DNA from: a virus
Lineage: Duplodnaviria; Heunggongvirae; Uroviricota; Caudoviricetes
Virus record (IMG/VR): IMGVR_UViG_2565956708_000007
Length of the DNA stretch: 64,000 bases
Strand: one strand, 5' to 3'
In this document: positions 16,154-19,193 of the stretch, piece by piece
Position numbering within the stretch: the stretch's first letter is position 1
Layout: the number at the start of each line of letters is the position of its first letter
The notes under the pieces: model-generated
What the model saw: only the letters and a program-made list of their open reading frames with translations
Told to the model about the DNA's origin: nothing
Database searches by the model: none
Translations under genes and position numbers: made by a program

Positions 16154-16331
16154 GCATCCCCCTTACCCATGTGCGACGATGCCGCCAAAAGTGATAGAGA
16201 ACAGCCAGAAATAGATCGCGGCCATAATGATTTTGAATGCCGTGTTCATATTTTCAGCTCCTGTGATTGATTGGATACATGCCGCGCCTTGCGGCATGTT
16301 TTTATTTTCACTTCCCCTGTCTTAAAAATCA

Positions 16332-16854: not shown

Positions 16855-16927
16855 ATGCCCTCCTCATTGGACGAAAAAAATGCTGGTGGGACGCACTCCA
16901 CCAGCATTAAAAGTGACACTGTAACTA

Positions 16928-18190
16928 TCAGCGGACGTAAATTGTGCCGCCGTTCTCTTTTTCCCATGCATCGCTACGTGCATAGCAAACATCGAGAAGT
17001 CTTCTTGCCGCTGTTTCCTCTAAACCCAATTCGACAACCAACTGCTCATGACGGCGGGTAACCACATCAAACAGGGTATGCAACCCTTTAGTTGCCAGAT
17101 CATCAATGAATTCCGGTTCGAACGGCAGCTCTGCATCTGCCAACATAACCTCTTGCGCCCACTCAACTCGACGGACCAATTCCGGGCGGCGGCTTTCCAT
17201 CTCTTTACAGATCAATTCATGGAAGAACTCTACCCAACCTTCCGGCTGGAACTCGCGGAAAATTGCCAACGGCTGGAAGTTTGGCATCAACCATTCGTTG
17301 ATTCGGATATCAATGGCATAGCCCATGTCGCAGCAGAACTGATAAGCAAAGTCCAGCTTAGAAACGATATAAGGACGCTCGTTATTGAACTCTTTAGGCG
17401 ATGAGATCCCATAAGCTAGGAGGCGCGGGAAGAAGGAGATTTGCCCTAACGTCGGATGAAGTTTGCTTGCAGGGAAACGGCGCTCAGTAATGCCATACAT
17501 TTCCTTCTTGAGCGTCGCAAATTTGGCATTCTCATTAACCAGCGCGGTAACCTCTGCTTTTTTATTAGCAAATGCCACGCGCGCTTCGCTTGCATCCTTA
17601 ATAGTTTTTTTGAGCTGTTGGTTAAGGTCGGCGACCTGCTTACGCAGTTCCTGTCGCTCGCTTTTAGCTTTGTTATAGCGTTTCTCAAGGTTAAAAGGAT
17701 CAAGTTTCATGATCTCTTTATATTGAGATTTTAGCGTTGAAATCTGTGAGTTCCGCAGTTCAACCATCGCGGTCATTTCATTGAGTTTTGTTTCCAGCTC
17801 AATGCTTATACGTTCGGCATTATCAGCACGCTGGTTGGCATCATGCGTCGCATCGTCGATCGCGTCCTGTTGCTGGCGTTTCAAATGTTCAATTTGCAGC
17901 TGAAGCTCTTCAATTTCTTTACCCTTCAGACCGAGATCCAACTGCATATTTTCAGCTGCATCTACCAGGGAGTTATGGCTATCAGCTTCTGCGTTATAAA
18001 CATCAATAAGCTGTGCGTGAAGCATCTCCGCTGACTGAACCGCATTATCAAAAAAACGTGCTGTGAGGTCATCACAACTAACGCGGCGTTGCGCGGCCCG
18101 GATGTTCTGGATAATGGCCGGGATACCGGCGTTCAGGACATCAGGGATAGATACATTTTCGATTGATTGGTTTTGTGCTGAAGTGCTCAT
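16928..18190 (-). CDS. Coiled-coil hypothetical protein (420 aa)
   Basis: long heptad-rich central region; no enzymatic motif recognised. Confidence 0.55.
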   Translation of the reverse strand: MSTSAQNQSIENVSIPDVLNAGIPAIIQNIRAAQRRVSCDDLTARFFDNAVQSAEMLHAQLIDVYNAEADSHNSLVDAAENMQLDLGLKGKEIEELQLQIEHLKRQQQDAIDDATHDANQRADNAERISIELETKLNEMTAMVELRNSQISTLKSQYKEIMKLDPFNLEKRYNKAKSERQELRKQVADLNQQLKKTIKDASEARVAFANKKAEVTALVNENAKFATLKKEMYGITERRFPASKLHPTLGQISFFPRLLAYGISSPKEFNNERPYIVSKLDFAYQFCCDMGYAIDIRINEWLMPNFQPLAIFREFQPEGWVEFFHELICKEMESRRPELVRRVEWAQEVMLADAELPFEPEFIDDLATKGLHTLFDVVTRRHEQLVVELGLEETAARRLLDVCYARSDAWEKENGGTIYVR

Positions 18191-18191
18191 T

Positions 18192-18410
18192 TCAAAGTTC
18201 CGTATTAGCTTGTGCTTCGGTCATTTTTCCTAAGTATGAAGGAGGAAGGACTACGCAATTTGTATCCAGTCCCTCACCTATGGCAGCCTGTAAAATTCTG
18301 GCTAAGGTGAGTCTCTTGTTGCGATACCTGGTGATGACATGCCTGATACCGCCGGTCGGCGTAACAAAGGCGATCAGCCAGTAGTGATATTTCCGTCGGA
18401 ATGGCCACAT
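18192..18410 (-). CDS. Small hypothetical protein (72 aa)
   Basis: ORF between coiled-coil gene and operator pair. Confidence 0.35.
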   Translation of the reverse strand: MWPFRRKYHYWLIAFVTPTGGIRHVITRYRNKRLTLARILQAAIGEGLDTNCVVLPPSYLGKMTEAQANTEL

Positions 18411-18424
18411 AGTGCACCTTATGA

Positions 18425-18441
18425 ATTGCTCTAATAAAAAA
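18425..18441 (+). promoter_or_regulatory. C1 operator-like site, left member of a divergent pair
   Basis: ATTGCTCTAATAAAAAA, 14/17. Confidence 0.55.
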
Positions 18442-18465
18442 CGTGATGAGTGTACATCACGTTTT
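18436..18465 (-). terminator. Palindromic hairpin with flanking T/A runs, likely bidirectional intrinsic terminator
   Basis: AACGTGATG-agtgta-CATCACGTT, followed by T6 on minus strand and T4 on plus strand. Confidence 0.5.
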
Positions 18466-18473
18466 AAAAATAT

Positions 18474-18490
18474 GGAATTATTAGAGCAAT
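18474..18490 (-). promoter_or_regulatory. C1 operator-like site, right member of a divergent pair
   Basis: plus strand GGAATTATTAGAGCAAT, 14/17. Confidence 0.55.
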
Positions 18491-18491
18491 A

Positions 18492-19193
18492 TTATTCTGA
18501 TTCTCGCTCAAAAAATGAGCTAATGAGGGGGAGCCAATCCTCTGACACTTCGCGAGGTCGCGGTTTGCCGTGGAAAAAGATTATTCGGCAGTCTTTTGGT
18601 AATGCCCCATTCCCCCTGGAGTAACGCGCGCTCGCATATTTTGAACCAGGTTCCACAACATCGGCCTTGTAACTTACAAACCATCCTGGATACAGATCCT
18701 GAAATGCTGGTGTATCATCGCCCATAACCTTCCGTAAGAACCCCTGATCACCCCAGCACTCAGTAGTGACACAACGAGAAATCCAACCTTCCGGATCTTG
18801 CCAGAATGAACTCCAGATATGCGCTTTAACACTATTTGGTATCCACAGGGCACCGCTGCCACGATATTGTGGATGGTAAAAATCCCTAAGCATGGTGAAG
18901 CTGGTTGGTGGATGCTCTAGGATTGGGCGTATATCACCGGCAATAACCGTGTCCAAATCCAGATAGAACAGATCATCGGTTATATCCGGTCGGAACAACT
19001 CGATTTTCGCCCACCAGCCACGGCACTTTTGCCACTGGTTGATCAATGGGACAACTTTGACGCCAGGTACATGTAAACGCTTCAGGTCTGTCAGGCAAAT
19101 AATTTCATAGCCTTTTGGCAGTTGATTAACCAGCCACTGCACATCGGAAGCGTTATAGTCACCACCAGAGCGAAAAACTAAAGCAATCTTCAT
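18492..19193 (-). CDS. Putative glycosyltransferase-like protein (DXD motif)
   Basis: FYLDLDTV DxD-type motif in a GT-A-like context; 233 aa; weak call. Confidence 0.4.

Follow-up and report, generated by a model that had tools for sequence, protein, structure and literature searches.

Genomic context of the locus

The window (the whole stretch of 64,000 nucleotides that was analysed) is, judged by its sequence, a P1/P7-type phage-plasmid: the region around the site considered here has 98.6–99.2% identity to P1, P7, Salmonella phage SJ46 and other punaviruses. All genes near the site are located on the minus strand. The gene pmgQ (hdmD; 18492–19193), the last one of the upstream operon pmgN-pmgO-pmgP-ppp-pmgQ, ends with a stop codon at 18492–18494. 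It is separated by a gap of 81 bp from pmgR (shtA; 18192–18410), the first gene under control of the operator site, which is followed by pmgS (shtB; 16928–18190), the second gene of the pmgR-pmgS unit. According to a deletion analysis cited in PMC10695390, pmgR is essential. The 81-bp gap houses both operators and the hairpin between them, while the gene of the c1 repressor is situated on the plus strand at 599–1450; its product is identical to P1 C1.100 in 281 of 283 residues (99%).

The offsets to P1 coordinates, determined for c1 (599–1450) and for the pmgR region, differ by ∼5.96 kb; the window has ∼6 kb more DNA than P1 between c1 and pmgR, as expected for a P7/SJ46-like phage-plasmid. 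An ORF on the plus strand (18412–18624), which runs antisense to pmgQ, was regarded as spurious.

The 66-bp operator–hairpin–operator block (18425–18490) is identical in the window, P1 (AF234172) and P7 (AF503408) and occupies the same place, between pmgQ/hdmD and pmgR/shtA; near the site the window departs from P1 in a few bases only, all of them in the stretch from Op86b to the pmgR start codon. The element is not new: it is the Op86a/Op86b–PpmgR region of P1 and P7, the regulatory gap of the pmgR-pmgS (shtA-shtB) operon. In the original prediction, promoter and terminator elements appeared superimposed here in one intergenic space, and the element was suggested to separate the upstream enzyme genes from the downstream ones. 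Both points are correct: in the 81-bp gap a promoter overlaps with a terminator-like hairpin, and the gap parts pmgN-pmgQ (with ppp) from pmgR-pmgS. Such an arrangement was also called unusual; however, in compact phage genomes it is common for operators to occur as a flanking pair and for a terminator to border directly on the promoter that follows, and the site itself is present in the P1 and P7 records.

C1 operators

Two operators delimit the block. OpmgRb (former Op86b; ATTGCTCTAATAAAAAA) is located at 18425–18441 in plus orientation; OpmgRa (former Op86a; ATTGCTCTAATAATTCC), in minus orientation at 18474–18490, begins 1 nt past the pmgQ stop codon. Both are annotated as protein_bind sites for ‘phage repressor C1’ in P1 AF234172 and P7 AF503408. 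The P1 record describes OpmgRb as a ‘monovalent C1-controlled operator’ and states that OpmgRa ‘controls expression of pmgR and pmgS’; in the P7 record the sites are named Op(sht[a]) and Op(sht[b]) and are said to regulate the sht operon. Two operator-like sites of 17 bp, 32 bp apart around a palindrome and accompanied by a T6 run on the minus strand, had been predicted from the letters alone; the sequence is exactly as described, and the annotation confirms that the sites are C1 operators. Their orientation was misread: the sites were called divergent, but the asymmetric operators point toward each other and are thus convergent. The 32 bp between them span 18442–18473, and the distance from centre to centre is 49 bp.

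P1 is known to have 22 C1 operators with an asymmetric 17-nt consensus, ATTGCTCTAATAAATTT, and C1 was reported to bind these asymmetric sites as a monomer, with the helper Lxc/Bof (PMC8546580). Each of the two sites agrees with the P1 C1 operator in 13 of 13 positions of the 13-nt core and in 14 of 17 positions of the consensus. With up to two mismatches allowed, the 13-nt core occurs 15 times in the window, against 1.9 occurrences expected; none of 100 shuffled sequences reached 15. By annotation and by match to the consensus, both 17-bp sites are catalogued C1 operators with a cognate c1 gene in the same genome; binding of C1 and repression at these two sites are taken from their annotation as ‘former Op86a/b’. 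The upstream operon, by annotation in the P1 record, is likewise controlled by C1, through Oppp/Op83 and O26/Op82.

The operator core of Op86b is invariant in the alignment of four lineages described below. The T6 run makes up positions 12–17 of Op86b, where the operator consensus would read AAATTT. The corresponding end of Op86a varies by lineage (TTCC, TTTC or TTTT), and the combination of an invariant T6 at the end of Op86b with a variable end of Op86a fits a double constraint acting on the former.

Structure and conservation of the hairpin

At the centre between the operators the DNA reads AACGTGATG-agtgta-CATCACGTT, and the stem extends to 11 bp (AAAACGTGATG/CATCACGTTTT). In RNA of the gene strand (minus) this is a hairpin, AAAACGUGAUG-UACACU-CAUCACGUUUU, at 18438–18465, with an 11-bp stem and a 6-nt loop. 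The extended hairpin has a folding energy of −13.4 kcal/mol (z = −5.7 in comparison with dinucleotide shuffles); its core stem (18442–18461; −8.5 kcal/mol) is short, having 7 bp with four G:C pairs. No match of the region to Rfam was found at E ≤ 1.

To see how the element varies we used a pattern search with two inverted operator cores, which matched 118 IMG/VR contigs; nearly all of them carry the same 66-bp block. Protein and DNA searches revealed three further diverged lineages, represented by the IMG/VR contig L056, by Salmonella plasmids (e.g. pCVMN1543) and by Cronobacter phage JK004, with PmgS proteins only ∼69% identical to PmgS of the window. The layout is common to the four lineages: the pmgQ stop codon is followed by Op86a, the hairpin, T6, Op86b, ∼14 nt and the pmgR start codon, with 66 bp from operator to operator in each. 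A scan of genome contigs with a PmgS alignment produced only two near-identical Escherichia coli loci. A scan of metagenomes, where the pattern also matched the other strand, returned mainly P1-type copies again and added a few stem variants. Distant PmgS-like proteins with 20–24% identity (from Citrobacter pCfr13-1, E. coli pPSS-08-1_2 and Pseudomonas phages) reside in a different gene context.

Some of the collected contigs have features of their own. The first 63 nt of L056 include ∼60 bases upstream of Op86a that are unlike pmgQ, and a search with its positions 1–900 gave matches of 80–99% identity in >1700 plasmid records from many genera, far beyond the punavirus plasmids. These matches probably map to the upstream stretch, which suggests that the end of a mobile element may have replaced the upstream gene there. 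Long near-perfect palindromes ending in TTGCTCTAATA...TATTAGAGCAA were seen in three metagenome contigs (L144, 2139–2197; L154, 1231–1288; L155, 13428–13478); they lack a P1-like interior and appear to be unrelated elements.

In the three non-P1 lineages the hairpin reads AAA(A/G)CATGGTG-TATCAT-CACCATGTTTT. Its stem differs from the P1 stem by two compensatory pairs, a G:C to A:U and an A:U to G:C replacement, which may reflect a single split, as the three lineages share one hairpin sequence; besides, a symmetric protein site or templated repair can likewise give rise to compensatory change in a DNA palindrome. Among 20 distinct 66-mers that were aligned, 97.3% of the stem cells are paired, a value that no shuffle equalled, while slid registers gave 38–72%.

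Conservation at the level of populations could be assessed in 161 P1-type copies. The mean minor-allele fraction is 0.005 in the inner 42 nt (the positions left free by the search pattern), as compared with 0.030 in the pmgQ 3′ flank and 0.053 in the 14 nt that separate Op86b from the start codon, i.e. 6–10 times lower. Within the latter segment (18411–18424, minus strand), the first four bases past Op86b are the most polymorphic ones of the region in these copies, with CTAC, TTAC, ATAC, CTAT, CCAT, CCAA, TCAT and other variants observed; the Shine-Dalgarno sequence AAGGTG beside them is mostly retained.

The substitutions in the stem carry information on the strand on which the hairpin works. 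All one-sided transitions that are recurrent or fixed lead to G.U pairs in RNA of the gene strand; there are seven such sites (A26G, A29G, C43U, A44G, C46U, A47G and C48U) with at least 12 events. On the other hand, the four changes of A.C type on this strand are all singletons. The one-sided probability of such a bias is ∼0.04, assuming that the events are independent and that both kinds are equally likely. In JK004 the stem has an energy of −8.7 kcal/mol on the gene strand but is weakened to −4.7 kcal/mol if the opposite strand is read. This strand bias speaks for a hairpin formed in coding-strand RNA rather than for a dyad that acts in DNA only.

Terminator features

The hairpin core starts 31 nt past the pmgQ stop codon on the same strand and is followed there by UUUUUUAUUA. 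The T6 run (18436–18441, minus strand; the U-tract of the RNA) comes directly after the core stem, and its columns T50–T55 are invariant in all 20 distinct sequences. We computed a terminator score d of the d’Aubenton-Carafa type, with modern energy parameters and the stem ended before the T-run. For the site d is +10.7 when the gene strand is read and −20.7 for the strand opposite; the other lineages gave +11.6 to +13.6 and −18 to −75, respectively. The score is moderate: the site ranks sixth among 15 positive-scoring sites of the window. Six sites of the window have d ≥ 10, as compared with three in total over eight dinucleotide shuffles (∼16-fold enrichment).

The built-in terminator scan of the window did not list the site, probably because the stem was extended into the T-run, with too few T left after it. 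The P1 and P7 records have no terminator at this hairpin; in ∼30 kb of the P1 GenBank record that was inspected no terminator is annotated at all, so such an absence is uninformative. In the searchable literature we found nothing usable on 3′-end (Term-seq) or start-site mapping in P1 or on Op86. Given its position, score and pairing, the hairpin with T6 is probably an intrinsic terminator for transcripts of the upstream genes. In P1vir RNA-seq at 30 min the values for pmgQ, pmgR and pmgS are all near 11–12 (PMC8201110, Table S1), so any termination is not visible at gene level at that time.

Two other hairpins of the neighbourhood have stronger scores. At 16881–16906 (minus strand), 22 nt past the pmgS stop codon, the hairpin TGCTGGTGGAGTGCGTCCCACCAGCA has a T7 run after it (−16.1 kcal/mol, d = +31.4, rank 3 of 15); it is annotated in neither the P1 nor the P7 record and would close pmgR-pmgS as a two-gene unit separate from pap. 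The pmgR-pmgS unit is thus bracketed by terminator-like signals, at 18436–18465 and at 16881–16906. The other one, CATGCCGCGCCTTGCGGCATG at 16278–16298 with a T-run after it (d = +34), is situated between Op88/OpmgT and pmgT on the plus strand, opposite to the genes, and could be a stop for antisense transcription.

The pmgR promoter

Published expression data point to a promoter inside the gap. In P1vir RNA-seq (PMC8201110, Table S1) the logFC values at 10 min are 6.9–7.4 for pmgO-pmgQ (7.05 for pmgQ), 9.02 for pmgR and 9.99 for pmgS; in the dksA host the values at the same time are 6.23 for pmgQ, 9.00 for pmgR and 9.09 for pmgS. Thus, from pmgQ to pmgR and pmgS there is a step-up of ∼2–3 log2 units (∼4-fold or more) in two hosts. 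The logFC values are not clearly length-normalised and pmgR is the shortest of these genes, yet the excess of pmgS is beyond any length effect. Since the step-up at 10 min exceeds what length could produce, the location of a promoter in the pmgQ–pmgR gap is well supported. CRISPRi roadblocks in pmgO-pmgQ gave no lethal phenotype, though the knockdown of pmgR itself was also missed (PMC10695390); this outcome is a weak sign that the essential pmgR needs no transcription from upstream.

The P1 GenBank record places PpmgR, a ‘predicted sigma 70 promoter’, at 18461–18489 (minus strand), with the −35 hexamer TTGCTC at 18484–18489 and the −10 hexamer TAAAAC at 18461–18466. The conserved final T of a −10 hexamer is absent here from all sequences, and the hexamer is replaced by TAAAGC, TGAAAC or TGAAGC in variants and relatives (L122, L123), with TGAAGC in JK004. 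A −10 element lacking its final T and degenerate in relatives makes this assignment doubtful, and the GenBank hexamers are, on these grounds, probably wrong.

We scored all positions for sigma-70 promoters, admitting as −10 element only hexamers with its key A and T. One candidate has the top score in every lineage scored. Its −10 hexamer is TACACT (18449–18454, minus strand; TATCAT in the other lineages), which is the loop of the hairpin, and its −35 hexamer is TCCATA (18471–18476, minus strand; TTCAAT, TTTAAT or TTTACT in relatives), which overlaps the last 3 nt of Op86a. The spacer is 16 bp, the −35 and −10 hexamers are at operator positions 15–20 and 37–42, and the predicted start is near 18442. 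Three of the six loop bases differ between lineages, while the T, A and final T of the pattern T-A-n-n-n-T are invariant. The proposed −35 hexamers are weak, with three or four matches of six. A third candidate has the −10 hexamer AATAAT inside Op86a (operator positions 9–14), which matches the consensus in five of six positions and is found in all lineages, with GAGAAT, GTGAAT or GCGAAT situated 16–17 bp upstream as −35.

Two other possibilities were rejected. The −22 boxes of the Lpa-dependent late promoters LP26, LPhot and LPpac (AAATGACTA, AAGTTACTT and ATGTGACTT) mismatch the hairpin at the required spacing; a plus-strand promoter using TTGCTC of Op86b as −35 has no acceptable −10, as read from the sequence.

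The score, the conservation and a geometry like that of the P1 promoter Plpa lead us to prefer the −10 in the loop over the GenBank hexamers. We favour, as the predicted pmgR promoter, the one with its −10 in the loop and its start near 18442. With such a start, Op86b would span about +2 to +18, and Op86a would cover the −35 hexamer and DNA upstream of it.

Proposed mechanism and alternative explanations

The model that we propose combines the dual C1 operators, a promoter with its −10 in the loop and the hairpin with T6 as a terminator, together insulating two C1-controlled operons from each other within 81 bp; we consider it rather likely as a whole. It builds on the annotated operators and repressor gene, on the promoter in the gap and on the conserved RNA-type pairing. 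In the prophage, C1 (with Lxc/Bof) on both operators would mask the polymerase footprint at its upstream as well as its downstream edge and silence pmgR-pmgS, the contribution of each operator being a predicted one. Upon induction or infection the pmgR promoter would fire early, with RNA polymerase starting at about 18442 (a predicted start site), at the first bases of Op86b. Transcripts arriving from pmgN-pmgQ would fold the hairpin and, by the termination presumed here, end in the U-tract at about 18436–18441. Transcripts from the pmgR promoter would start inside the hairpin, if the GenBank promoter is used, or past it, if the promoter is the one with the loop −10; lacking the 5′ arm of the hairpin, they should not be terminated and would run through pmgR-pmgS to the terminator after pmgS.

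A more specific claim is that the GenBank assignment misses the actual pmgR promoter, whose −10 is the very loop of the terminator hairpin of the upstream operon. Four overlapping signals would then be compressed in one 66-bp block (operator, −35, terminator with −10, and U-tract with operator) in at least four punavirus lineages, and upstream transcripts would be stopped while the promoter’s own transcripts escape. We put this claim forward tentatively, the balance of our judgement being close to even and tilted slightly against it.

Explanations in which the hairpin acts on the transcripts of pmgR itself, or acts together with bound repressor, deserve comparison with this model. If transcription started near 18470 from the −10 hexamer AATAAT in Op86a, every transcript would carry the hairpin with the U-tract, yielding an RNA of ∼35 nt or a regulated readthrough, as in a leader or attenuator. 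The five of six matches to the −10 consensus, the presence of AATAAT in all lineages with hexamers 16–17 bp upstream of it, and the preservation of the hairpin as an RNA structure on the gene strand are all consistent with such a leader. Still, AATAAT belongs to the operator core, where binding of C1 suffices to account for its conservation, and the −35 candidates are weak and lie within coding sequence. P1 is not known to have an antitermination system, and no Rfam family matched the region. Besides, pmgR and pmgS are among the highest-expressed P1 genes at 10 min (PMC8201110), which is at odds with a promoter that feeds directly into a terminator. All this makes a leader or attenuator unlikely. 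The suggestion of the original prediction that the site may produce a very short RNA is unsupported: it needs the −10 inside Op86a, while the better conserved candidate starts past the hairpin and early expression of pmgR and pmgS is productive. The original prediction also proposed a repressor-controlled terminator or roadblock. Control of a terminator by the repressor is unsupported; the operators flank a promoter, just as at other P1 operons. In a roadblock, C1 bound to Op86b in a lysogen would stall polymerases coming from pmgQ and make a weak terminator efficient; the overlap of the U-tract with Op86b would place C1 exactly where polymerase pauses, and the hairpin by itself is only a moderate terminator. 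However, with the upstream operon controlled by C1 at Oppp/Op83 and O26/Op82, little transcription should arrive in a lysogen, and a roadblock would supplement the main model, not take its place; we judge it quite unlikely.

Other explanations deny the hairpin a role in RNA. The palindrome could be bound by a dimeric protein of the host or the phage, or it could serve, as a spacer or a cruciform, to fix how far apart and in what phase the C1 sites stand. The perfect dyad located exactly midway between the operators, the 66-bp spacing fixed in nearly all copies and the joint change of both half-sites between lineages would all suit a signal in DNA. Yet the recurrent or fixed variants are of G.U type on one strand only, though they would harm a dyad as much as the rare changes of A.C type; the invariant T6 and the strand-specific terminator score would be left unexplained, and no candidate protein is known. 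A purely DNA-level function is, in our opinion, improbable. Finally, the hairpin might be functionless, a palindrome that arose by chance or was inherited in the spacer of a dual-operator promoter, given that there are only four lineages and three of them have one hairpin sequence. The fold z-score of −5.7, the two compensatory pairs, the inner 42 nt being far less polymorphic than the flanks and the ∼16-fold enrichment of sites with such terminator scores over shuffles render this very unlikely.

The import of these observations beyond P1 biology is small. Annotations of P1 and P7 have included the operators and the operon they target for two decades. The refinements offered here, i.e. the hairpin as a likely terminator and the −10 moved to the loop, are modest and testable. 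If true, they would correct the predicted PpmgR hexamers and add a terminator between pmgN-pmgQ and pmgR-pmgS in a phage with wide use in transduction, cloning vectors and studies of phage-plasmids. They would also describe a compact natural example in which a terminator encloses a promoter and repressor sites lie on either side, possibly an insulating part for synthetic constructs.

Comparison with known systems

The element recorded in P1 and P7 is the same as the one described here; the records differ from the present reading in that they take TAAAAC, not the loop, for the −10 and annotate no terminator. Within P1, the bivalent operators Obanab (Op72ab) and Oc1ab (Op99ab) resemble the site in having two asymmetric 17-bp C1 sites in convergent orientation that serve one promoter. 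In Obanab and Oc1ab, however, the sites overlap with an 11-bp offset, whereas here they are 49 bp apart from centre to centre, with the hairpin and the core promoter between them.

Precedents for the placement of promoter hexamers relative to the operator come from Plpa, Pc1 and P1ban, P1 promoters annotated without the word ‘predicted’. Plpa/Olpa (Op94) has the same geometry as the promoter proposed here, with −35 TTGCTA at operator positions 15–20, a 16-bp spacer and −10 TATTAT at positions 37–42; unlike our site, it has a single operator, better hexamers and no palindrome around the −10. In Pc1 the −35 is also at operator positions 15–20. On the other hand, P1ban has the geometry of the GenBank PpmgR, with −35 at positions 2–7 and −10 at 25–30, but with a good −10, TAATAT, and makes a precedent for the GenBank assignment.

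With intrinsic (Rho-independent) terminators the hairpin shares a stem-loop and U-tract on the coding strand after a stop codon, a strand-specific score and conserved pairing. It departs from typical ones in that its stem is short and only moderately G+C-rich and its U-tract doubles as part of a repressor site.

Dual-operator repression, with sites flanking a promoter, is familiar from gal OE/OI and lac O1/O3, and in the block studied here repressor sites are likewise found upstream and downstream of the core promoter. Unlike in gal and lac, C1 is reported to act as a monomer on asymmetric sites with Lxc/Bof (PMC8546580), and both sites are within the polymerase footprint, so that looping is not required.
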